A stretch of DNA of 64,000 nucleotides from Escherichia coli (lineage in GTDB: Bacteria; Pseudomonadota; Gammaproteobacteria; Enterobacterales; Enterobacteriaceae). The notes beneath the pieces were generated by a model. The model searched no databases. It saw only the letters and a program-made list of their open reading frames with translations, and was not told the DNA's origin. Position 1 is the stretch's first letter. Each line of letters opens with the position of its first letter. The DNA lies in the NCBI RefSeq assembly GCF_017348835.2, contig NZ_CP071375.1. The stretch is one strand, 5' to 3'. Positions 1-59,985 of this stretch are shown piece after piece. The translations under genes and the position numbers were made by a program.

Positions 1-1047
1 CAGATCACCACCATTGGCCGCAGAGTTGATATCATCAATAGTAAAAGGGCCGGGTGGAACAGTAGTCTGATAAACATCGTATCCGTTCTGTTTTACACTC
101 ACTTGTGCGGTGCCACGGGCAATACCATGAATCACCGGAGCGAAACCATGTTGGCTATCGGGCAACATCGCTTCTGTTGAATTTATTTTGAGGCCACGAA
201 AGTTCACACTATCAAAAATATCGCCATCGGTATAACTATCACCTACCGTTAACCGTGAGCGTAAGGGAATAATGTCACGTTCAGCCGACGTATTGATATG
301 CTGCCATTTATTGCTGTCTGATGAATTGCTACTCCCACTGTTATAACTCCACGTTGAGTTATCGCGCAGTCGCCAACTACCAATGTTGATGCCACTCTGT
401 AAATTCAAATATGCATAGTTGGATTTTCCTGCATTATGGTTACTACGATTATTAATAGAATTACCATTAAAACTATAGTTTAGAAGCCCAGCATTTATTC
501 CTTCTTCCCACAGATCAGGAGAAACATAGCCGCGAGCCATTCTGCCAACATAAATTTGCGGAACGGAGAGTGACAAATGTTGCTGACCAACATCAAACTC
601 AGTTGATGCGTCAGCTAAACGATCCTGAAGTGGTGTGCATGCGCTGTTGTCCGGCACATGTTTTTCTGCTGAATGTTCGTTATTGTCTAATAACGCAGAT
701 TTTTTTATGCCAAGACTGACAAGAAGATCTGTACTTAGGCATGGGATGAGATCTGCGTTATTATCATCTGCAATAAAAGTAATATCCCGACTAGTCATAA
801 ATTCGTCGTTCAAATAAATGTCGACCCGATATGTACCAGGTGGTGCCTCGCGTCCCTTAGTAAAGGCGGATAAATCGACAGATTCAGCAAGATCATTGCT
901 TAAAAACCGTGGATTAAAATAATACTCTGCGTCAACGGGAAATACCGCAGTTGCTAAGCTAAGGGCAATGGTAAGCCGTACAAAGCGAGGCAGTAGTAAC
1001 ACCTGATGCATACGATATGCCTTAAATGCGGCACGAAAGGCTGTCAT
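1..1047 (-). CDS. Fimbrial outer-membrane usher, N-terminal ~349 codons; gene continues beyond window start
   Basis: Minus-strand frame from ATG at 1045-1047 is open to position 1 with no stop (absent from ORF track because it runs off the edge). Sits downstream of pilin and chaperone genes in classic chaperone-usher order. Confidence 0.7.
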   Translation of the reverse strand, partial: MTAFRAAFKAYRMHQVLLLPRFVRLTIALSLATAVFPVDAEYYFNPRFLSNDLAESVDLSAFTKGREAPPGTYRVDIYLNDEFMTSRDITFIADDNNADLIPCLSTDLLVSLGIKKSALLDNNEHSAEKHVPDNSACTPLQDRLADASTEFDVGQQHLSLSVPQIYVGRMARGYVSPDLWEEGINAGLLNYSFNGNSINNRSNHNAGKSNYAYLNLQSGINIGSWRLRDNSTWSYNSGSSNSSDSNKWQHINTSAERDIIPLRSRLTVGDSYTDGDIFDSVNFRGLKINSTEAMLPDSQHGFAPVIHGIARGTAQVSVKQNGYDVYQTTVPPGPFTIDDINSAANGGDL

Positions 1048-1088
1048 TATTAATTCCGATTGAGTTTATTATTAATTAGGTCACTGGC

Positions 1089-1808
1089 TTACTGCATGGT
1101 TGCCTTAATACGCGGAGTTAATGCACCGTAATCATTGATCGTCTGAAAACTGATATCCCCGGTTGCAGCATGCGGGATATCCACCGATACTTCACCTTTT
1201 GGCGGCACCATGGTGTTTGGGAGATTGCTATTTCCTGCTTTCATATTTGTTACGGTAATGAAGTAGGGCGTTGGATTAATAAGGGTGAGTTTGCTACCGC
1301 TGCGACGAAACCGAAGCATTGCAGGCGCTTCTTCAGGTGCCATTGCCAGGTTCGTGGGGCGATAAAACATTTTTATGCGGCTAATAATTGCCAGCTGTAA
1401 TGTATTCTCATTCTTCTGGTCTTTTTCCATAGCAGGAATAGCTTTAACATTCACCCAGAACAGGCTTTCACGGTCGCCTGGTAACTGATGATTAGTGGCA
1501 TTGATTATCCGCAGCGTATTCTCTTTTTTACCTTGCATGGAAAAAAGCGGTGGGGTAATGACAAACTGGGTGTCTTTTTGGTCACCTGCATTTTCTATCC
1601 ATGACTGAATGAGATAGACACTGGCAGGATCATTATTCGTGACAGGCAATAAAACCTGTTTCTGGTTTGCCGGATAAATTACCCGCGTCGCACCCAGTGC
1701 GACAGCTGCGTTGGCAACGGTGCTATGGCAAGCAAAGAGCAATAAAAGTAACACTGTCGCCATAAAGGAAATAGAGTAGGGGGTACGCGTAGTTTGCATC
1801 TGATGCAT
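1089..1808 (-). CDS. Periplasmic fimbrial chaperone (FimC/PapD-like)
   Basis: 239-aa ORF with N-terminal signal peptide (hydrophobic run ending in ANA) and chaperone-like sequence; lies between pilin and usher. Confidence 0.8.
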   Translation of the reverse strand: MHQMQTTRTPYSISFMATVLLLLLFACHSTVANAAVALGATRVIYPANQKQVLLPVTNNDPASVYLIQSWIENAGDQKDTQFVITPPLFSMQGKKENTLRIINATNHQLPGDRESLFWVNVKAIPAMEKDQKNENTLQLAIISRIKMFYRPTNLAMAPEEAPAMLRFRRSGSKLTLINPTPYFITVTNMKAGNSNLPNTMVPPKGEVSVDIPHAATGDISFQTINDYGALTPRIKATMQ

Positions 1809-2159
1809 TCTCCATGTGTTAAGAGGATAAGCGGGAAAACCGTTACATCAGACAATCGATAAATGTTGCTAATACATTGGCGAGTCGCCGGGTTTCCAGA
1901 CTTAATGCGTTTGTAATAAATGTTGGTTCTCTTTTAATAGGAAAACCTTGCTACAAAGTAAATATTTTAAATAACAGTAAGTTTAACTACTGTTGTTTAT
2001 TGATAGTTTAGATATTATGTGATTTTTCATAGCGCTCCAAATACAAACCACTCCTCATTAATAATGAGATTCACATTGGTGAATTGCTCGGGTGTGCGTA
2101 GCCATGCCACACACACCCTGTTTCAATTTCAGATGACGTATAGCCACCTTAAGATTGAA

Positions 2160-2723
2160 TTATAGATATTGAACCTTGAAGGTCGCATCTGCGTTTGCAG
2201 TACCAGCTACGGACTGCCCGAGTGCAATATAACGAGCCTGGAACGGCAGTATATTCGTGCCATCAATCAAGTCAGTTTTAGCGCTAAAAGTGGCACCATC
2301 AAGTATTAATACCTCACCCGTACGGTCCAAAATTTGGATACCGACATTTTGGGCAGAGCCTGCCGCTGAACTCTGCAGCGCTAACGTATCGTCATTACTG
2401 GTGACAGTAGTACCCAGGAATGCAACAGCTGCATTACTGGAAACATTGGTATCACAATCATTCAGCTTGATATTGAAGCCAACGGCGGAGCTGAGGTCAC
2501 CCGCTTTAGCCAGGCGAGAAGAACGAACCTGACCCAGCTCAACCGTTTGGTTCATTGATTCTGAATCAATCGCACAAGCGGCATTTACCACTTCACCTTT
2601 AAAATGAATAACACCGCCATTAACAGTGGTCGTTACTGATTCATCACCCTCGCCTGCGCTTACCGCAGCAGACGACATCGCCAACACAGAAACGACAATC
2701 ATACCAACATGTTTGAGTTTCAT
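2160..2723 (-). CDS. Major fimbrial subunit (FimA-like pilin)
   Basis: ORF with signal peptide [23 protein letters not shown], Cys pair and C-terminal FKVQYL pilin motif; GGAG ribosome-binding site upstream of ATG at 2723. Confidence 0.8.
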
Positions 2724-3156
2724 AATTCTCCAAAATTTATATTTAAGTAGCTGAATAAAGAGAGTTAACAATTAAGTCATTCTGTTATTGCTTATAAAAC
2801 AAGAATCATTCTTGATTGGTTGTTGCCCTGAGAATATAGTTTCCAGGATTATTACATTTCACGAAGAACGAGAATATCTTTAAATCACAAGGACACCTAA
2901 TCACAACAAGTTTATTGCTGCACTTGTTGAAGAGAGTATTTGCAAAAATATTTTATGTCGCTAAATAACATAACGATTTCATTATGCATGTTATTTATAA
3001 ACCGTGACTAAACAGAATATTATTGCGAACAAGGGAAGTGTCAGGAAAGGTCAAGGGCTACTAATGGTTTATATGGCTATAAATCATTAGCTATAGTTAA
3101 TGTTTGCCTGGTGTAACTAACACCGAATTGCTCTAAACAGATAAGTGCAGGGTTTA

Positions 3157-3411
3157 TTAAAGCTGACCGACAGACTTTCTTAACCTGGTAATATCTCTCT
3201 TAGGTGACTCTCCAAACATCTGCAAATATTCCCGGCGGAAATGGGATAAGCTTTCGTAACCGACAGCATAGGCTGCTGTGGTGACATCGTAATGTTCATT
3301 CAGCATCGTTCGCCTGACTTCATTGAGACGTAGCCATTTCTGATACCGGAGTGGACTCATTCCCGCAAGCTGCCTGAAGTGTTGATGGAAAGAGGGCGTG
3401 CTCATTTGCAC
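3157..3411 (-). pseudogene. yneL: AraC-family regulator fragment (C-terminal HTH only), yneL-like
   Basis: 84-aa ORF carries only the second AraC helix-turn-helix; the overlapping 3320..3577 ORF in another frame does not look like HTH1, so the gene appears truncated or frameshifted. Confidence 0.45.
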
Positions 3412-4117
3412 GCGGTTTGCCAGCTTGAGTCTTCAACGCTGGGAAGATGCGGCAAACGGCAAATCGGCATACCAGCCAGCCTATATCCGTCATGCACAGG
3501 CCAATTATGAAAGAGGAGAGGCTTAAGTTCTGGAACCCTGAACGAATAACGAGCACCGGAAAATCACTTCGTATCACTCAGATGCTATTTAACATAATAT
3601 ACATTATGCGCACCAATATAAACCAAGGGAGAATCTAGTCGTTGGCGGTCATGATTGTCCTGCTCATTAACAACGACCAAACCCCATATCTTACTCTTAC
3701 TTAATACCGTATTCCCGGCTTAACCGACCGTGCAACCTCAACACATTGGTTTCAACTGCCGTCACCACGTTCTCTGGAAAATCTGTCGGTAATGAAGTCT
3801 TCACGTTATCCAGTGCTGCCGGAATCATTCTGGCAAAGTCACTCAGGATTTCATGCATCTGCACTTCCGGGAATCTCAGCACCTTTGCTGTCGCCAAAAA
3901 ATGTCGCGGATAAATTTTATCGATTGCCGTTTTTTTGCCTTTGGATGCGTTAAGCCCCATTGCCAGTTTGAGATCGCTGATGTGTATTCCCGCGCCACCC
4001 AATACCGGAAATGCTGAAATGATGTCGTAAAATGGCGTGAGTCGATAACTGCCGCCAGCCTGAATAAATACGGAGAAGTTTTTTGCATGGCCATCCGTTG
4101 CGCCAATCAGTTCGCTG

Positions 4118-4547
4118 CATACCGGTCCGACCCCGTACTGCTCACGCAGCTTATCCAGCAGTGGCATTATTTTTTCCAGAGGCGGTCGAACTCCGCCTTC
4201 GCAAAATAAGCGGAAGCCTGGCGAAGGATATCGTTACTGCGGCGCAGTTCACGATTTTCACGTTCCAGCTCTTTCAGACGCTGACGTTCAGCGGTGGTGA
4301 GTCCACCATCACCACTCCCGGTATCCCGCTCATGCTGGCGAACCCAGACACGCAGAGTCTCCGGCGTACAGCCAATCTTTGGGGCAATGGAACAAATTGC
4401 CGCCCACTGTGAGTCATATTCATCCTGACTTTCCAGAACCATACGAATCGCCCGCTGACGGACTTCGGGGGAAAAACGAGTATTTTTAGTCATCCTGTTT
4501 ACCTCTTTCTCAGGGAGTTTAGTCTCCAGGATTTCCGGGGCGGTTCA
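4118..4547 (-). mobile_element. Truncated IS3-family element (IS629/IS1203-like): terminal repeat, complete orfA, first ~20 codons of orfB
   Basis: Bases 4118..4547 match the full copy at 56514..57823 (same end sequence, ending ggggcggttca); identity stops at 4118 inside orfB. Confidence 0.8.
4167..4493 (-). CDS. IS629-like transposase OrfA
   Basis: 108-aa ORF ([19 protein letters not shown]...), identical to the orfA at 57443..57769. Confidence 0.85.
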
Positions 4548-4841
4548 CAACGCTGTCTCGCCCTATTTCTGACAATAAATCAAACGGTTGTCTGGATTTG
4601 GCATGATAACGTTTAACGATCCGGTCACGTACAATCGGGCTATCGGGTAACAAGTTATCGAAGAAGTTAAATACGGCATCAGAGGTGATATTCCCCCTCT
4701 GCAATGGCAGCGAAAGTGACAACGGTCTGGCATAACGGCTGGCTAACCACTCCGGTGCATACTTAAAGGTGTGCGCGCCGTTGGCTAACTTCGTTAACTC
4801 GCCTACCCGCTGGTTGTTCATCCAAGTGACTAGTTTGGGCA

Positions 4842-5108
4842 TTACCACTCCAGATCTTGCTGTTCTGTTGATTCTGGCGAGGCATTTTTCGTGTCGCATA
4901 GCGTCATTGAGAGTTCAAGCGACTGTAAAATCTTAAAAAATGTCGTGAGCGAGGTATTGTCAGGGTTGTTTTCGAAATTGGAAATCGTCGCCTGCTTAAT
5001 GCCGATTTTTTTCGCCAGCTCGCTCTGCGTCCAGCCATTTTGCTGGCGAACCAGTTTCATTGCATTCGCTAATTGCGTTGGGCTATAGATCTTCTGAAAG
5101 CTCATCAT
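4842..5108 (-). CDS. hipB: HipB antitoxin / transcriptional repressor
   Basis: ORF matches HipB (MMSFQKIYSPTQLANAMKLVRQQNGWTQSELAKKIG...); stop overlaps the hipA start by 1 nt as in the known operon. Confidence 0.9.
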   Translation of the reverse strand: MMSFQKIYSPTQLANAMKLVRQQNGWTQSELAKKIGIKQATISNFENNPDNTSLTTFFKILQSLELSMTLCDTKNASPESTEQQDLEW

Positions 5109-5129
5109 GTCATACGTCCACAGCAAATT

Positions 5130-5243
5130 TATCCGCTTAAGGGGATATTATCAGTTTTATCCTTTAGTGAGGATAAAGTCAATCTGGAAACACATCTTAT
5201 CCGCTCTACGGGATAAACGCTGCGATATCCGCGATCGCGGATA
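5130..5243. promoter_or_regulatory. hipBA operator region: four TATCC-N8-GGATA HipB operators
   Basis: TATCC-N8-GGATA palindromes seen at 5130-5147, 5158-5175, 5198-5215 and 5226-5243, directly upstream of hipB. Confidence 0.8.
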
Positions 5244-5318
5244 AAAGGGAGGCTTTAAAAGCCGTTTGAAGTCGGCAATATTAAGCCGCATGCCATCTCG
5301 ACATGCGGCTTATACGGT

Positions 5319-8300
5319 TTACCAGCTATATTTCACTCCCAGCATGCCCTGAGTATCGCTATAGCCTTTATCACCTAGTTGCACACCGACATTCCCCCAC
5401 AGGCTAAGGTTGTTATTTACTTTCGCCTCAACCCCGGTACGTACTTCACCGAGATTACGCGCACCATCACGGCTTACGGTTTGACCATTCATCTTCACGG
5501 CGTAGACTTCGCTATTGTTGATCCAGTTCGCTTCAATGTAAGGCTGGAACTCACGCTGTTTACCATCGTCACGCTGGTGATGGCTATTCAGGTAGGTTTT
5601 CACCCCAAGTCGCGTTTGCACGTTTCCGTCGCCTTCCGTTTCAATGCGCGTTCCGTCTTTCCGGGTATGGTCAGAATCTTTCACACCCATCCAGGTGATT
5701 TGTACCTGTGGCTGGACGTACCAGGTATTCAGCGTCCCTTCGCTGCCACTAAATGTTCCCGCTTCAAAGGTATACCCACCCTCAACAGAGGCCGTCACAC
5801 CGCGAGAATCATAGTCGTCAGCAGAACGGTTATCGGAACTGACACTGTTATCAAACCAGTTATACAGCACCCAACTGTCAACATAAGCGCCGGTCTTATT
5901 CGCATCGTTCTGATACCAGGTCGCGTACAGCCCAGCGCTGTAACCGCTGATGCGCCCATCCGATTTATAACCCACACGATTACTCTGAGTATTACTGTGC
6001 TGATTGGCGTAGCCTGCCATCACGCCAAGATGCCAGCGATCCTGCGCGTTGCTACTCCACTGCGCCAAATCGCCGCCTAGCTGCAATACATAGCGGTTAG
6101 CCTGAGCATTTAGCTGGCCGTCACCGGTCCTGAAACGTTCGTGTCCCCCGACATGACGCATCCACATACTGCTTGCCGAACCCTGAGAAAGCCGTGAATC
6201 TGTATACTGCGGCTCACCCAGACGGTCGTGTAAGCGATGGCTAAACAGCGAGTTGGCTGCGGCAATGTTGCTGATATAGCTTCCGGCCTCCGGGCGATAA
6301 ACTGATGGGCCTTCCGGATCCACAACAGGGGGATTATTGATGGGATCGGGTGTATCCGCTGGCGTTACGCCGTCCCATTTACTGGTCAGATACCAGTTTT
6401 TCTCGTCATTCCCCTTCCCTTTAGCCAGCGTGTAGACGTAAGCCCCAGCTTCGACAGTTCCGGTGGTCAGCGCGAAGTTACCTGCAGAATTACCGCCAAC
6501 CTCAATGAGTTCAATACCGTTGACCGTTTGCGCACCGACGCCGCCAATGTTATCAACCCGAACGCGAGTGTTCCCTTGGGTATCGCCTTTCACGTTCATC
6601 TTATCGGTGGGTGAATTATCGCCGCCCAGCGTCGCGTTGAACGTTATCAGGCCATTGTTTCCGGTATAGTTGCCGTTAACGGTCAGTACATTCCCCGGTT
6701 TTCCTCCTTCACTGTTCATTTGAACCGTGCCGCCATTCTTCAGGTTGCCGCCGATTGTGGTTTTAGCGACACGCAGTGTCCCCCCAGACATAACGTTCAC
6801 ATCACCTGCAGTGGTGACATTTCCCGACATCACACCGCTGTTATGGATATTAATGTGTTGACTTACCGTATTAATGGCAGAGTCGGAACCGAAAGCAATT
6901 TCCCCCCCCCCACGATATCCGTCGTACCCTGATACGCCGAGGAATCGTTGTTAAGAGTCAGGATCCCGGTACCCAGTTTTGTCAAATCACCGCTACCGCT
7001 GATACTGTGCGTCATCGCCCAGCTACGCTCAGTGGAGATGGTGAGCAGGCCATTATTGATAACGGAAGCATCACCCAGGTTTTTCTGCTCGTTGACGCTG
7101 AGCGCGCTGCCTGTATCAATGTTGAATTGCCCCACAAAGCGGCTATTATCGCCATCCAGCTCTACATCTGTCCTGGCGGTTGCGCTCACGATACCCTTCC
7201 CGCTTATGCTATTACGCAGTTCGCCAGTCACGTTTTTTAGCGTTAACAGACCGTCATTGGCAATATTTCCTCTGCCTAACCCCTGCGTATTATCGAGGCT
7301 GACTTCCGCATTTGGGCTAACGCTGGTTAACGCATTGTAGCGTGCATTAAGCCCCTCAATAGCCAGCGTTCCCCCTGTAACATTCAGGTTTCCGCCACCT
7401 GTCAGTTCACCCTGACTGATCCCACCTTTGGACACCGTGGGAACCGTCCTGAACGCCCACCAATGAATATTCTTTGTTATTAATCAGTCCATTATTGGAA
7501 ATATTGACTTTGCCATTACCGAAATATCCATTATAGAGTCTGCGTACCGTGATGACAGAGTCTTGATCCTGCACATTCAGGGTTCCGACACCGGTGGCAT
7601 TGCCACCGATAATCGTATTTTCAGCCGTAATCAGTCCACCCTCGCGAATAGTCGCCTCCCCAGTTCCTTGATTACCAATTTGAAATTCAATTGAGGAATC
7701 GTTATTTTTCATTAGCCACTCGCCACCCTTTTCAACGACAACCTGGCCATTACTGCCCGCCTGATAGCCTAAAATGGCGACGATTGAACTCGTGACGTAA
7801 CCCTTATCCGTAATATTTAATGAGCCTGTACCGTAACTCCCTATTTCGAATAATTCGGTCGTCAAAACCGAGTCCTCTCCCTCAACATTAACCGTCCCGA
7901 CGCCTGCAGCTTGAGTACCTAATCTTAAATAGCCTCCATCGACGTGACCCTTCTGTTTAATATTCAGCGTCCCCGTTCCGGATTGACCCACATTTAAAGG
8001 CCTTGCATTATTTCCGCTATCATACAATCGCCAGGTGCCACCCAAAACATTAACGGTACCCTCCGAATCCTCATTACCGCCAATGACGCTGGTAGTAATA
8101 GTGGTTAAGGAGGCATTACCGCCAGCCAAAATATTAAGCACTCCAGTGCCATACCAGCCAACCAGGTAGGCATCATAAGCAACATCAGTATCAATATTGG
8201 TAATCTGACCATTATCAACTTCCAGACTCGCACCAGACGCTGAACCGCTTAGTGCCAGCAAAACACCCAGCGTCAATCTACTGAATTTCGTTGTCAGTCC

Positions 8301-55788: not shown

Positions 55789-56513
55789 TTATCTCGTCAC
55801 CTTCCTCAATTGCGCTTCCGCGTATGCTTCTTCCTGCCAGCACTTTGTTACCAGTTTACCAATGACGTCAGCATACCCCTTATACCACTGATAATCGGTC
55901 AGGTCTGGTACCAGCTTCTGGACATGACGTCGTGCCAGCGTGGTCGGTAAACGACTAAACCGGTTTCCATTACAACGCCCACAAATCTTATATACCGGTA
56001 CGCCATGAAACCGGGTTCTTTTTTCATCCAGAACAATCCCTTTACCCTTACACCCTCTGCACGCTGTGCTGACTTCGCCCTTACCATGGCAATGCTGACA
56101 TAGTTCCTTTACCCATTCTTCCTTGATTACAGATTCCCCGCGTCTGTAGTGTTTCACCACTTCGCGCAATACATTATAAAATCCCGTACCTGAACAATGC
56201 TCACAGCGAGCCTTACTTGCCGCAGACCTAGAGTAATCAGCAAAGGCAAAATTCACGAGGTAAGGAATAATCTGTAACCGGATTTCTTCACTCAATTTGT
56301 TCAATGTCGGGTTATCCAGTGCCATCGCGTAATTTAGCAGGCCTTCAATCGCAAACTGAGGGTCCTGAACACCAACTTTTGCCAGAAATAAGGCCAACCC
56401 AAGTGGTGCTTTCGACTGCACCATCCCCTGCGCTGCCATTACATCCGTAATTGTTAAACAACCGGTGCCTGTCGCTGGAGCGTCATCGCTCAATTTTGGA
56501 GATTTTGGGGAGT
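55789..56513 (-). CDS. quuQ: Late-gene antiterminator Q-like protein with four CxxCxGxG zinc motifs; 5' end removed by IS629
   Basis: 234-aa ORF starts at TTG 20 bp from the IS end; frame is open right up to the IS boundary at 56514. Sits upstream of the cold-shock morons and lysis genes. Confidence 0.6.
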
Positions 56514-56555
56514 TGAACCGCCCCGGGTTTCCTGGAGAGTGTTTTATCTGTGAAC

Positions 56556-57443
56556 TCAGGCTGCCAGATCATTATTTCCGATGGAAGCATAATAAGCTTT
56601 TTCTGCTTCTGCCGGAGGAATATGGCCCAGCCTTTCCAGCAATCGTCGATTGTTATACCAGTCCACCCACGTTAGTGTGGCCAGTTCCACTTCTGTCCGG
56701 TTTTTCCAGCTCTTACGGTGTATTACCTCCGCTTTGTAAAGACCATTGATGCTCTCAGCCATCGCGTTGTCATACGAGTCGCCAGTACTCCCTGTTGATG
56801 CCAGTAATCCGGCTTCCTTAAGCCGCTGCGTGTAGGCCAGCGATACATACTGAGAACCTTTATCACTGTGATGGATTGTGCCGGACGGCCGACGGGCCCA
56901 CAACGCCTGCTCCAGTGCATCCAGCACGAATGTTGTTTCCATGGATGATGAGACCTGCCATCCCACGATGTATCCGGCGAACACATCAATGATGAACGCC
57001 ACATAAACGAAGCCCTGCCATGTGCTTACCCAGGTAAAATCAGCCACCCACAACTGGTCTGGACGTTCTGCCACGAACTGACGGTTTACGCGGTCGCATG
57101 CGGCAACGGCTTTCCGGCTGACGGTAGTGCGGACCTTTTTACCCCGGAGAACACCGGCAAGTCCCATAACTGCCATGAGACGTGCCACAGTGCATCTGGC
57201 CACTCTGATACCTTCCCGTAACAACTGACGCCAGACTTTACGCACACCGTATACCTGGTGATTTTCATCGTATACGCGCTGTATCTCTTTCTTCAGCCAG
57301 TCATCGTGCTGCGCACGGGCACTGCGTTTATCCGGATGATGTCGCTGTTGCTGACAATGGTAATACGTTGACGGGGCAATATGCAGTTCGCTGCATACCG
57401 GTCCGACCCCGTACTGCTCACGCAGCTTATCCAGCAGTGGCAT
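56556..57443 (-). CDS. IS629-like transposase OrfB (DDE); expected to be made as an OrfAB fusion by -1 frameshift
   Basis: 295-aa ORF; A-rich slippery stretch (GGAAAAAATAATG) at the orfA/orfB overlap. Confidence 0.9.
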   Translation of the reverse strand: MPLLDKLREQYGVGPVCSELHIAPSTYYHCQQQRHHPDKRSARAQHDDWLKKEIQRVYDENHQVYGVRKVWRQLLREGIRVARCTVARLMAVMGLAGVLRGKKVRTTVSRKAVAACDRVNRQFVAERPDQLWVADFTWVSTWQGFVYVAFIIDVFAGYIVGWQVSSSMETTFVLDALEQALWARRPSGTIHHSDKGSQYVSLAYTQRLKEAGLLASTGSTGDSYDNAMAESINGLYKAEVIHRKSWKNRTEVELATLTWVDWYNNRRLLERLGHIPPAEAEKAYYASIGNNDLAA

Positions 57444-57769
57444 TATTTTTTCCAGAGGCGGTCGAACTCCGCCTTCGCAAAATAAGCGGAAGCCTGGCGA
57501 AGGATATCGTTACTGCGGCGCAGTTCACGATTTTCACGTTCCAGCTCTTTCAGACGCTGACGTTCAGCGGTGGTGAGTCCACCATCACCACTCCCGGTAT
57601 CCCGCTCATGCTGGCGAACCCAGACACGCAGAGTCTCCGGCGTACAGCCAATCTTTGGGGCAATGGAACAAATTGCCGCCCACTGTGAGTCATATTCATC
57701 CTGACTTTCCAGAACCATACGAATCGCCCGCTGACGGACTTCGGGGGAAAAACGAGTATTTTTAGTCAT
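57443..57769 (-). CDS. IS629-like transposase OrfA
   Basis: 108-aa ORF identical to 4167..4493. Confidence 0.9.
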
Positions 57770-57874
57770 CCTGTTTACCTCTTTCTCAGGGAGTTTAGTC
57801 TCCAGGATTTCCGGGGCGGTTCATTAAAGATTTTTTTGTGCATGCCGATAGTGCTTTTTTAAAAGGAGAAATCT

Positions 57875-58207
57875 ATGTCTGTCACAATTCAGGGAAATAC
57901 CTCAACCGTTATTTCAAACAACTCCGCCCCGGAAGGAACATCAGAAATAGCCAAAATCACAAGACAAATTCAGGTGCTGACTGAAAAGCTTGGGAAAATC
58001 TCATCGGAAGAGGGGATGACGACACAGCAGAAAAAAGAAATGGCTGCATTGGTACAGAAGCAAATTGAAAGCCTCAGGGCTCAACTGGAGCAGTTGTTAA
58101 GGCAGCAGGCAGAGAAAAAGAATGAAGACGCGACAGTTCAGCCTGATAAAAAAGAAGAGAAAAAAGACGATACAAATACCGCTGGCACCATTGATATTTA
58201 CGTCTAA
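57875..58207 (+). CDS. flxA: Prophage protein FlxA
   Basis: 110-aa ORF MSVTIQGNTSTVISNNSAPEGTSEIAKITRQIQVLTEKLG... with ribosome-binding site. Confidence 0.7.
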   Translation: MSVTIQGNTSTVISNNSAPEGTSEIAKITRQIQVLTEKLGKISSEEGMTTQQKKEMAALVQKQIESLRAQLEQLLRQQAEKKNEDATVQPDKKEEKKDDTNTAGTIDIYV

Positions 58208-58221
58208 GTGACAGCCGTATT

Positions 58222-58245
58222 GTGGCCCTCATCGGGCCACTTTTC
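58222..58245 (+). terminator. Intrinsic terminator after flxA
   Basis: GTGGCCC-tcatc-GGGCCAC-ttttc. Confidence 0.75.
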
Positions 58246-58643
58246 GCCATCAGCCTTTTCTTTAAAGACATATTATCTTTGTATCATTTCTGATAGTTAA
58301 CATTACAAGATATAAGTAATGGACGCACTCCCAATTAGTCTATTTAAATCGCCACGAGTTTAACTGACAACCCATGATCAATTATGAATTGCAACTATTT
58401 CTGTAGTCACTTTTGTGGGGACAGTCCACAAAACTGCCAACTTCCGCTTCTTGCTCTTAGCGGACATTAGCATAGGCTATTTACCATAACGCCTCATTAC
58501 GCGCACCGCCCAGACTGACTCAGCGCGTTTCTGGCATATCCCCGGTAAAACAAGTAACAAACCACCCGAAAATGAACACCAGAAACGCGACTTAAGAATC
58601 TACCCTATGAATGGATATGCACTCAACCGAATCGATCTTGGTT

Positions 58644-59985
58644 TCAATCTTTTTTATCGGGATCAGGCTTCTTTTTAGGTAACTTCGGGGGCTTAACTTG
58701 CTGATGACTTTGCGTTCGGCGCGTAAGCCAGGGATGGTCAGCTTTAGGTTTAACATAGTATTTTGAGCGTAAATCAATACGGGCATTATCCACTCGTTCA
58801 TGGACACTCTTTTCATCATCCAGTGGTATAGGCTCCGGGCCATCAACATACTTTTCCCAGCCCAGCGCTTTCCCGTCATACAGAACGTTAATTTCACCGT
58901 CAAAGTTCTCGCATACAGTAACAACCGAATGCCTAAGTCGATATCCCCGGCCCTCACTGCGTACCTGAAACGCACTGCTTTTGTACTGGAAAGTGAGATT
59001 TTTAGACAGAACGCGCTTCGCCTGTAGGCTGAAGATATAACCCAGTTCCTCTTCAGAATGGTGCACATCAAGATGAGCATTATCAGTAGTACGAGGCGAC
59101 GTAGCGAACCGGTTGTTATAGGCTTCAATAAAGGTCGGCAACCATGCATTTGCTGTTTCAATATCACTGATATTCTGAAGCCGCATTTCTTTGACCAGCC
59201 TGTCCTGTAGTGTCTGATTGGCGCGCTCTACCCGCCCTTTTGCCTGCGGGCTGTTGGCATGGATTGGCTCGATGCCCAGTGTCTTTATCGCACGAGTGAA
59301 CTGGGTCAGCTCACCTTCCCGCTCTGGGTTATTTACCCTGAATATACTGTGTCTATCAGAGTAGAGAGCGAGCGGTACGCCATGATCATTAAGGTAACCC
59401 CGGAGGGTTTCCATGTAAGCCCGGGTTGTTTCAGCAGGCACAAAACGCAACGCCATCAACGCACTGGTGGCATCATCAATGAAAACGATCAGTGTACATC
59501 TGGGGCCTCGATTTTCAAACCAGTCATGAGGTGAGCCATCAATCTGGATCAGTTCACCGTAAGATGGTCGTCGCATGCGGCGTTGATATATACGGGCAAT
59601 TTTACGACGGCGTTCACGCCATACCCCCCTCTTCTATCATCCACTTTCTGAGAGTTTCAACGGATAAAGATAAACCGTGTATCTCGCGCAATTTTTCGCA
59701 CGCAAACGTAGGTCCAAAATCAGCGTAACGGCCTTTGAGGAGTGAAATTACTGTTGCTCTGAATTCAGTAGAAAAGGAATTATTAGGACGCTTTCCACGT
59801 CGGTGGGAAACCAGACCAGAAGGCCCTTCATTTCTATACCGTTGCACCAGACGTTTAACCTGCCGAATAGAAATGCCAATGCGTGCCGCAGCTTGTTCCT
59901 GAGTAATATGTCGATTAATTGACTCCTGAATAATCTGAAGTCGGTGGAGTTCCTTATGACTCATCGTAACAGTTTCTTTGGTCAT
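58644..59985 (-). pseudogene. HTH + DDE (integrase-core) transposase split into two frames (IS481/ISNCY-like)
   Basis: N-terminal HTH ORF 59614..59985 and DDE ORF 58644..59576 are in different frames; a C7 run sits at the junction (59625-59631). Confidence 0.6.

Follow-up and report, generated by a model that had tools for sequence, protein, structure and literature searches.

We found that positions 1..3010 of the window, i.e., the whole 64,000-nucleotide stretch of Escherichia coli DNA analysed here, most probably represent the half nearest the promoter of the F9 (Fml/Yde) chaperone-usher fimbrial operon of E. coli, with the site between ydeP and hipBA being ancestral; based on sequence comparisons, we place the probability of this reading at about 0.87. 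The F9 operon is a paralogue of type 1 fimbriae, and its detection here is a correct finding but an ordinary one, already known. On the minus strand of the window the order is pilin, PapD-like chaperone and usher start, with all frames open. The features discussed in this study are as follows:

1..1047, minus strand: F9 outer-membrane usher, first 349 codons; open frame running past the window start.
1089..1799, minus strand: F9 periplasmic PapD-like chaperone, 236 aa; PapD_N (E 8e-40) and PapD_C (E 5e-12).
1800..2159, minus strand: pilin-chaperone intergenic region, about 360 nt; folds better than shuffled sequence.
2090..2118, minus strand: hairpin GGGUGUGUGUGGC-AUG-GCUACGCACACCC with a 13-bp stem, 42 nt past the pilin stop codon, no U-tract.
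2160..2723, minus strand: F9 major subunit (FimA-like pilin), 187 aa; Pfam Fimbrial (E 6e-31).
2724..2974, minus strand: f9 transcript 5' UTR, 251 nt; start-site G at 2974, exactly 251 nt upstream of the ATG.
2981..3010, minus strand: f9 promoter; -35 TAGTCA (3010..3005), 18-bp spacer, -10 CATAAT (2986..2981), from a consensus scan.
3157..3426, minus strand: yneL-like pseudogene, 89 aa, C-terminal HTH remnant of an AraC-family regulator; HTH_18 match only.
1..2902, no strand: part inside the window of the K-12 MG1655 deletion, from BLAST of PE164 against MG1655 and junction inspection.

A preliminary description of this region had reported a pilin, a chaperone and the N-terminus of an usher whose open frame is cut by the window start, and the three genes were borne out: all are open on the minus strand with strong family matches, and the usher frame runs from 1047 to 1 through 349 codons without a stop. 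The pilin gene also stood, but its extent to 2771 did not; that position is a mechanical TTG from the list of open reading frames, and we moved the start to the ATG at 2723 given the RefSeq call in a near-identical record and the signal-peptide-like N-terminus that follows it. The chaperone start was likewise corrected to 1799 from 1808. Open reading frames on the opposite strand in 1..2771 were rated mechanical, as all are at most 91 aa long and lie inside coding genes.

Together with the distal genes of its relatives, the cluster has the components of a chaperone-usher pathway, i.e., a PapD-like two-domain chaperone, an usher and Fimbrial-domain subunits, all far above the Pfam gathering scores. 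Within the window the usher is visible only as its signal peptide, the PapC_N domain (residues 43-195) and the beginning of the barrel (Usher, from residue 213), while a full-length orthologue matches PapC_N (E 6e-46), Usher (E 2e-200) and PapC_C (E 4e-22). All three products are identical to proteins of strain PE164, namely WP_096220629.1 (pilin), WP_001195165.1 (chaperone) and, for the N-terminus, WP_089553542.1 (usher, 883 aa in full in the closest genomes). Amino-acid identity to O157:H7, B2 strain NC101 and the K-12 type 1 counterpart was, respectively, 99.5%, 98.4% and 66.3% (FimA) for the pilin, 99.6%, 97.9% and 58.9% (FimC) for the chaperone, and 98.6%, 97.8% and 57.5% (FimD) for the usher. 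The comparison with F9-type operons that had been proposed for this locus therefore yielded orthologues: all six F9 operon genes have open frames, and their products share 97-99.6% identity with the counterparts in O157:H7 and B2 strains (including NC101), the lineages in which F9 was characterised, and it is this near-identity to characterised F9 proteins of O157:H7 and B2 UPEC that establishes orthology.

Chromosomal position points to the same locus. F9 has been described as lying between hipBA (5') and ydeP (3'), and we found hipB and a disrupted hipA at window positions 3697..5108, on the 5' side of the operon, with ydeP next after ydeQ in PE164, F2_81 and draft contigs. Site and gene order in the window lineage are those of F9/Fml/Yde in CFT073 (c1931-c1936), O157:H7 (F9) and UTI89 (Fml, FmlH), and compared with these systems only allelic differences were seen: TAGTCA instead of the TAGTCG of CFT073 in the -35 hexamer, a private C-to-T change at +3, and N78S in the lectin domain of the nearest genome. 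The window lineage is also rich in IS1203-type rearrangements. The junction between hipA and the IS in the window had no match in complete E. coli genomes (three records with at least 80% coverage were two-piece matches at 97.5%), and the open reading frame at this junction was not found in the protein-to-contig index.

The window contains the pilin, the chaperone and 349 of the 883 usher codons, while the remainder of the operon is known from relatives alone, at 99.95-99.98% identity. Among complete genomes, PE164 and F2_81 come closest (1-2 mismatches over 4.1 kb), and PE164 is collinear with the window over ~56 kb with 10 mismatches; the source strain belongs to a porcine-associated lineage near these two. 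An intact usher of 883 aa and, after it, genes of 176, 167 and 304 aa were found in PE164, F2_81 and the drafts L012, L015, L016 and L017, and in PE164 and F2_81 the leftward continuation consists of the usher, ydeS, ydeR and ydeQ, all intact. Truncation or frameshift of the usher just beyond the window, which had been named as the observation that would overturn the preliminary description, was thus absent from all six. The lectin domain of PE164 YdeQ is identical to crystallised FmlH (PDB 6AOW) at 159 of 160 positions, the sole change being N78S, and the FmlH ligand contacts Y46, K132 and R142 (PMC5866590) are conserved in it.

It follows from such comparisons only with high probability, rather than directly, that the operon is intact in the source strain, with the distal usher lying outside the window. 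The leading alternative is a break further left, e.g., by an usher::ydeP deletion, in an operon whose three genes inside the window are intact, so that no fimbria is made. Indeed, two genomes with the identical pilin allele, L011 (ERR13361288) and L014 (GCA_043511345.1), lack 3,217 bp between usher codon ~604 and the interior of ydeP, which leaves a fused open reading frame of 1,359 or 1,347 aa; roughly one in three E. coli has a disrupted f9 locus, and the frequency of IS1203-type rearrangements in this lineage would also favour a break outside the window. Yet the full six-gene set was present in 6 of the 8 distinct contig contexts with the exact pilin allele of the window, and the deletion carriers belong to an F2_81-like sublineage in which the lsr genes have been lost and 3 positions differ from the window, whereas the window retains the lsr side and is nearest to PE164, L012, L015 and L017 (1 mismatch each), all with the full operon. 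We thus consider a broken operon unlikely.

Far less probable is the possibility that the open F9 frames belong to a decaying pseudo-operon that is no longer maintained by selection and has simply not yet acquired stops. F9 is silent in standard laboratory conditions and has been repeatedly lost across lineages, as this explanation would predict; against it, six genes totalling 6.4 kb remain open in lineages that have diverged by 1.5-3% in DNA (protein identity 97-99.6%), the lectin domain is almost invariant, and orthologues have been published as expressed at 20 C, as binding glycans and as having phenotypes in colonisation or UTI.

Type 1 fimbriae (fimAICDFGH) share with F9 the chaperone-usher class, the solved folds and the order of pilin, chaperone, usher, FimF-like subunit, FimG-like subunit and FimH-like two-domain adhesin, while differing in fimI, the recombinases FimB/FimE, the invertible promoter fimS and the mannose-specific FimH, as well as in their control (phase inversion in type 1, H-NS and temperature in F9). 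The weakest alternative takes its cue from the RefSeq pilin name and reads the cluster as the type 1 (fim) operon itself or a duplicate of it. It draws on the NCBIfam FimA, FimF and FimG cut-offs exceeded by the pilin (173.6 vs 140 bits), YdeS and YdeR, and on FimA, FimC (with SfaE, for the chaperone), FimD and FimH being the best solved relatives, but is refuted by position (ydeP-hipBA, not beside gntP) and identity (only 43-66% to K-12 Fim proteins), with chaperone and usher below the FimC and usher equivalog cut-offs, no fimI, fimB, fimE or accepted fimS-like switch in the cluster, and an adhesin, FmlH in relatives, that binds galactosides rather than mannose. Of five inverted-repeat pairs found around the locus, none was accepted as a fimS-like invertible element, mainly because there is no recombinase gene nearby. 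One of these pairs (I3; arms at 2934-2944 and 3221-3231, 276 nt apart) has a span that encloses the -10, the -35 and the start site; it is imperfect (91%), and the AraC remnant contains its outer arm.

The F9 reading extends to the transcription signals. In CFT073, the f9 promoter has -10 CATAAT, -35 TAGTCG and an 18-bp spacer, with a start site mapped by 5'-RACE to 251 nt upstream of the ATG (PMC3966885). The window matches the published -10 hexamer, spacer and leader length, and its -35 is one base off CFT073. The -35 variant follows lineage, being TAGTCG in B2 strains and TAGTCA in the window lineage, K-12 and O157:H7. The leader is AT-rich (28.7% G+C over window positions 2701-3000) and had no significant fold relative to shuffled sequence (z = -0.23), which does not suggest a riboswitch or thermometer-like structure.

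By contrast with the shuffled controls, the intergenic region between pilin and chaperone had a minimum free energy of -92.3 kcal/mol (z = -3.86; window positions 1809..2165), and its mean column identity across five strains was 97%. The hairpin in this region is invariant in the same number of strains while its flanks vary, and so it offers no covariation to assess. A terminator scan found no intrinsic terminator 3' of the pilin gene. An Rfam scan of window positions 1..6000 at E <= 1 found nothing in the f9 leader or intergenic region, the only matches being the ALIL pseudoknot of an IS remnant and a sub-threshold chance match. A second element, a perfect 10/11-bp inverted repeat, TAAATAACAT(G)-N14/16-(C)ATGTTATTTA, lies at 2962..2997 around the -10 hexamer and start site, and is weakened by the private +3 C-to-T change of the window.

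We regard a regulatory role for these two elements as a long shot suggested by conservation and position: the conserved hairpin may give rise to a stable small RNA derived from the 3' UTR, and the inverted repeat may be the operator of a dimeric regulator. The small-RNA idea is modelled on K-12 type 1 fim, where the fimA 3' hairpin and FimR2 region sit analogously; FimR2 is annotated directly after the paralogous fimA, and the hairpin at 2118..2090 could be its counterpart. Apart from these ideas, the same hairpin is a putative element that stabilises or attenuates the transcript and so raises the ratio of pilin to assembly proteins. No regulatory role for either element was found in the F9 literature examined.

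Upstream of the promoter, the AraC-like gene described earlier as a fragment is indeed one, with 89 aa, HTH_18 alone and stops throughout the region upstream of it. It aligns to residues ~199-279 of 284, or 241-318 of 327, in full-length AraC-family models, and is annotated as missing its N-terminus in every strain inspected, being frameshifted in one and shorter in K-12. No full-length version was found among the other E. coli inspected, where the gene is either truncated or frameshifted, or other genes take its place. The remnant is best described as a neighbour of the operon.

The same locus is a deletion remnant in K-12, as the preliminary description had stated, and both our MG1655 comparison and the published scoring of the MG1655 f9 locus as 'D', i.e., disrupted (PMC3966885), agree with its being F9-type. 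The further claim that K-12 keeps only an usher fragment does not hold: besides ydeT, the C-terminal part of the usher, K-12 retains intact ydeS, ydeR and ydeQ and the f9 promoter. Specifically, MG1655 lacks a 3,280-bp segment corresponding to window positions 1..2902 plus 377 bp further left, with 1 bp of microhomology at the junction, and a direct check found no MG1655 sequence matching 1..2901. This one deletion took out the pilin and chaperone genes, usher codons 1-475 and, from about +73 of the leader onwards, most of the 5' UTR, and it accounts for the loss of these genes in K-12 and many phylogroup A strains. The K-12 remnant (ydeQRST-yneL, b1502-b1506) shares locus, flanks, promoter and AraC remnant (yneL) with the window, and its ydeS, ydeR and ydeQ match their counterparts in the nearest intact genome at 97.6-98.9% identity. 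As natural isolates of human, chicken, waste-water and civet origin share this end-point, we interpret the deletion as a polymorphism of lineages rather than something that arose in the laboratory. Among 5,426 complete E. coli genomes, the segment was carried by 3,820 (3,537 at >=80% coverage) and the whole operon, at >=80% coverage, by 3,644; carriage of about 65-67% agrees with the published ~60% (60% in a set of 42 genomes, 61% in the ECOR collection).

Taken as an F9 operon, the locus would work as follows. Transcription would start at a sigma-70 promoter (mapped in CFT073) and proceed through the 251-nt AT-rich leader into pilin, PapD-like chaperone and usher, followed by the distal genes seen in the closest relatives only, i.e., FimF-like YdeS, FimG-like YdeR and the two-domain adhesin YdeQ (FmlH). 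By analogy with the solved Fim and Pap systems, Sec would carry the subunits over the inner membrane, the chaperone would hold them by donor-strand complementation, and the usher would polymerise them by donor-strand exchange, adhesin first. The YdeQ tip lectin would, from literature on orthologues, bind terminal Gal, GalNAc or Gal-beta-1,3-GlcNAc glycans. The same literature suggests that H-NS would silence transcription at 37 C, with relief near 20-28 C; this control by H-NS and temperature was shown by experiment in CFT073 and O157:H7, and the AT-rich leader is the one feature of the window that may point to it. In strains that have been studied, F9 stays cryptic at 37 C, and open frames alone are no proof of expression.

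The importance of this locus beyond correct annotation is slight. The RefSeq label of the pilin ('fimA: type 1 fimbrial major subunit FimA') is misleading, and the locus should be read as F9; its K-12 remnant is a textbook case of lineage-specific fimbrial decay. Most likely, the source strain would carry the F9/Fml fimbria in complete form; this adhesin is common in E. coli and has been implicated in biofilm formation at low temperature, in the colonisation of plants and cattle, and in chronic urinary tract infection.

The preliminary description had placed a pilin, a chaperone and the N-terminus of an usher at the left end of the window. All three are present there as open minus-strand frames with Pfam matches, subject to small corrections of their coordinates:

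1047..1, minus strand: N-terminal part of the usher, with ATG at 1047 (349 codons, stop-free, in frame with the window edge)
1799..1089, minus strand: chaperone, a 236-aa ORF (PapD_N, E 8e-40; PapD_C, E 5e-12)
2723..2160, minus strand: pilin, a 187-aa ORF (Pfam Fimbrial, E 6e-31)

The usher frame begins with a signal-peptide-like stretch followed by EYYFNPRFL, and its full-length orthologue matches PapC_N (E 6e-46), Usher (E 2e-200) and PapC_C (E 4e-22); the Pfam assignments of pilin, chaperone and usher orthologue are far above chance. The chaperone start at 1799 is the RefSeq call and is favoured by GGAGA spacing over an alternative ATG at 1808, while position 2771, previously given as the end of the region, is a mechanical upstream TTG from the ORF list only. 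About 360 nt separate the pilin and chaperone genes.

Window positions 1..4000 were matched in 5,421 of 5,426 complete E. coli genomes. The best-matching records were PE164 (pig, Nanjing) and F2_81 (pig, Australia), with 1 and 2 mismatches, respectively, over 1..4109; PE164 is collinear with the window across ~56 kb with 10 mismatches, IS-associated rearrangements excepted. In both genomes the minus-strand order is lsr, an autotransporter pseudogene, hipB, hipA, an AraC remnant, pilin, chaperone, usher (883 aa), ydeS (176 aa), ydeR (167 aa), ydeQ (304 aa), ydeP, safA and ydeO. In the proposed comparison with F9-type operons, this order proved to be the published f9 arrangement of six structural genes with ydeP 3' and hipBA 5', where a variable region with hypothetical regulators lies directly upstream of f9 (PMC3966885). 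The six PE164 F9 proteins share 98.2-99.6% identity with their counterparts in an O157:H7 strain and 97.0-98.4% with those in the B2 strain NC101; the window encodes exactly the same pilin, chaperone and usher N-terminus as PE164. The YdeQ lectin domain matches the crystallised F9 adhesin FmlH (PDB 6AOW) at 159 of 160 residues (sole change N78S) and retains Y46, K132 and R142, named as FmlH ligand contacts (PMC5866590). Since earlier publications describe the f9 locus fully, the operon is not a new finding.

RefSeq names the pilin "fimA: type 1 fimbrial major subunit FimA" on the strength of an NCBIfam model (173.6 bits against a cut-off of 140). We nevertheless rejected the fim operon as the identity of the cluster: its proteins share only 43-66% identity with their K-12 Fim counterparts, its chaperone and usher fall below the NCBIfam FimC and usher equivalog cut-offs, fimI, fimB and fimE are all missing from the cluster, and its chromosomal site differs from that of fim. 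An inverted-repeat search returned five pairs, one of which (I3; arms 2934-2944 and 3221-3231) encloses the promoter; none was interpreted as a fimS-like switch, chiefly for want of a nearby recombinase. The F9 cluster is a paralogue working like type 1 fimbriae. The best structural relatives of its proteins are the solved Fim and Pap systems, by analogy with which subunits would be exported by Sec, captured by the chaperone through donor-strand complementation and polymerised adhesin-first by the usher via donor-strand exchange, with YdeQ as the predicted tip, YdeR and YdeS as adaptors and the 187-aa pilin as the rod. Published work on F9 orthologues describes silencing by H-NS at 37 °C and expression at 20-28 °C, and fimbriae that recognise plant xyloglucan as well as Gal-beta-1,3-GlcNAc, TF or Tn glycans and play a part in biofilms, in the colonisation of calves and in chronic UTI.

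To assess intactness beyond the window, we considered all contigs on record encoding the exact pilin allele, which represent 8 distinct contexts. Six carry genes of 187, 236, 883, 176, 167 and 304 aa followed by ydeP. In the other two (L011 and L014), a fused ORF of 1,359 or 1,347 aa combines PapC_N, Usher and Molybdopterin domains. Alignment traced this ORF (L011:10677-14756 and L014:10713-14756) to a deletion of 3,217 bp that begins at usher codon ~604 and reaches into ydeP, fusing the frames and taking out ydeS, ydeR and ydeQ. Since this deletion starts beyond the last usher codon in the window (349), the window is compatible with it. L011 and L014, however, belong to an F2_81-like sublineage that has lost the lsr genes and differs from the window at three positions, whereas the window still has the lsr side and lies nearest to PE164 and three draft contigs (L012, L015 and L017), with one mismatch each; all four have the complete operon. 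From these relatives, and with the window ending at usher codon 349, we put the probability that the operon is intact in the source strain at roughly 85-90%.

The MG1655 locus reads ydeQ, ydeR, ydeS, ydeT, a yneL pseudogene, hipA and hipB, with ydeT annotated as a 382-aa usher-domain protein. Alignment with PE164 resolved the K-12 lesion as one clean 3,280-bp deletion with 1 bp of junction microhomology; it begins 377 bp outside the left edge of the window and ends at window position 2902. Lost with it are usher codons 1-475, both the chaperone and the pilin genes, and the leader from roughly +73 onwards. Everything in 1..2771 is consequently absent from K-12, in line with the preliminary description, but the usher fragment said to be all that K-12 keeps is accompanied by three intact subunit genes. 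In K-12 (L003:12080) the f9 promoter and ~72 nt of leader survive, joined directly to usher codon 476, leaving the ydeT-ydeS-ydeR-ydeQ remnant still behind its native, H-NS-silenced promoter. The original reading, that this strain may have a functional chaperone-usher fimbria at a locus reduced to a deletion remnant in K-12, is supported.

In CFT073, f9 transcription starts at a G that lies 251 nt before the pilin ATG, served by a -10 CATAAT, an 18-bp spacer and a -35 TAGTCG (PMC3966885). The corresponding elements, and a hairpin in the pilin-chaperone spacer, are as follows:

2974, minus strand: f9 start site (2723 + 251 = 2974), base G
2986..2981, minus strand: -10 CATAAT, matching the published hexamer
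3010..3005, minus strand: -35 TAGTCA (TAGTCG in CFT073)
2090..2118, minus strand: hairpin with an invariant 13-bp stem, 42 nt past the pilin stop, without a U-tract

The -35 is TAGTCG in B2 strains and TAGTCA in the window lineage, K-12 and O157:H7. No part of the region has a higher AT content than the leader and promoter (28.7% G+C over 2701-3000), which is consistent with the published direct H-NS binding. Position 2972, +3 of the mapped transcript, carries a private T (minus strand); of the 15 other loci compared, 13 have C and one has A. The -10 hexamer and start site are bracketed at 2962..2997 by a perfect inverted repeat (TAAATAACAT / ATGTTATTTA), whose arms are 11 bp in most strains and 10 bp in the window owing to the private change, and the 10-bp core is invariant in 16 of 16 sequences compared. 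The repeat, which is not among the f9 features noted from PMC3966885, may be an operator or a chance occurrence in AT-rich DNA. The spacer between pilin and chaperone is more stably folded than shuffled versions (z = -3.86), and its hairpin would stabilise the pilin-proximal transcript or attenuate read-through, as commonly seen with genes for major subunits. The hairpin occupies a place comparable to that of the one after fimA, the site of the K-12-annotated small RNA FimR2, although sequence likeness is confined to a common ACGTCAT and the CACCC end.

Two degraded genes lie upstream:

3426..3157, minus strand: AraC-like piece, 89 aa, C-terminal HTH_18 domain only
3697..4109: C-terminal part of hipA, separated by an IS remnant from the N-terminal part (4549..4842)

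The AraC-like regulator had been called only a fragment, and rightly so: its alignment with full-length AraC-family models covers their final ~80 positions, and stops occur throughout the frame upstream. Wherever it was inspected, the remnant proved to be a pseudogene: PE164, F2_81, O157:H7 and Z142-4 have it annotated as "missing N-terminus", in Z142-3 it has a frameshift as well, and the K-12 copy is shorter; a different gene set adjoins it in some strains, and NC101 lacks it. Three alternative hypothetical regulators are reported at this site, with no evidence of f9 control (PMC3966885). The hipA toxin gene is destroyed (3697..4842) and hipB intact, the interrupter being a 441-bp IS3-family remnant (IS1203/IS629-like) with orfA and an ALIL frameshift pseudoknot at 4096..4212. 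PE164 has a complete IS here, the window being 1,488 bp shorter; L012 has lost the IS wholly, plus 733 bp still in the window (3815..4547). The window's hipA-IS junction was shared by no complete genome in the collection. Downstream of hipB, a large autotransporter (5319..~9900; yneO / ECSE_1600 family) is a pseudogene in the window, as it is in K-12 and in PE164 (frameshifted, split). Within 56513..59106, a full IS3-family copy (56513..57823) is oriented opposite to that at the corresponding PE164 site, and the next 1,283 bp (Qin-prophage flxA, ydfW and part of an ISEsa1 transposase) are missing in PE164 and present in F2_81, indicating that the three close relatives differ mainly by IS-associated events.

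The segment deleted in K-12 was found in 3,820 of 5,426 complete genomes, with at least 80% coverage in 3,537 (65%). The whole six-gene stretch reached at least 80% coverage in 3,644 (67%), and at least part of it occurred in 5,349. The K-12-type end-point appeared in 7 of 30 records sampled at even spacing from the ranking, and is also carried by natural isolates of human, chicken, waste-water and civet origin. [quoted passage not shown] Taken with these surveys, our counts identify the intact f9 operon as the majority state, and the K-12 state as a common minority one.
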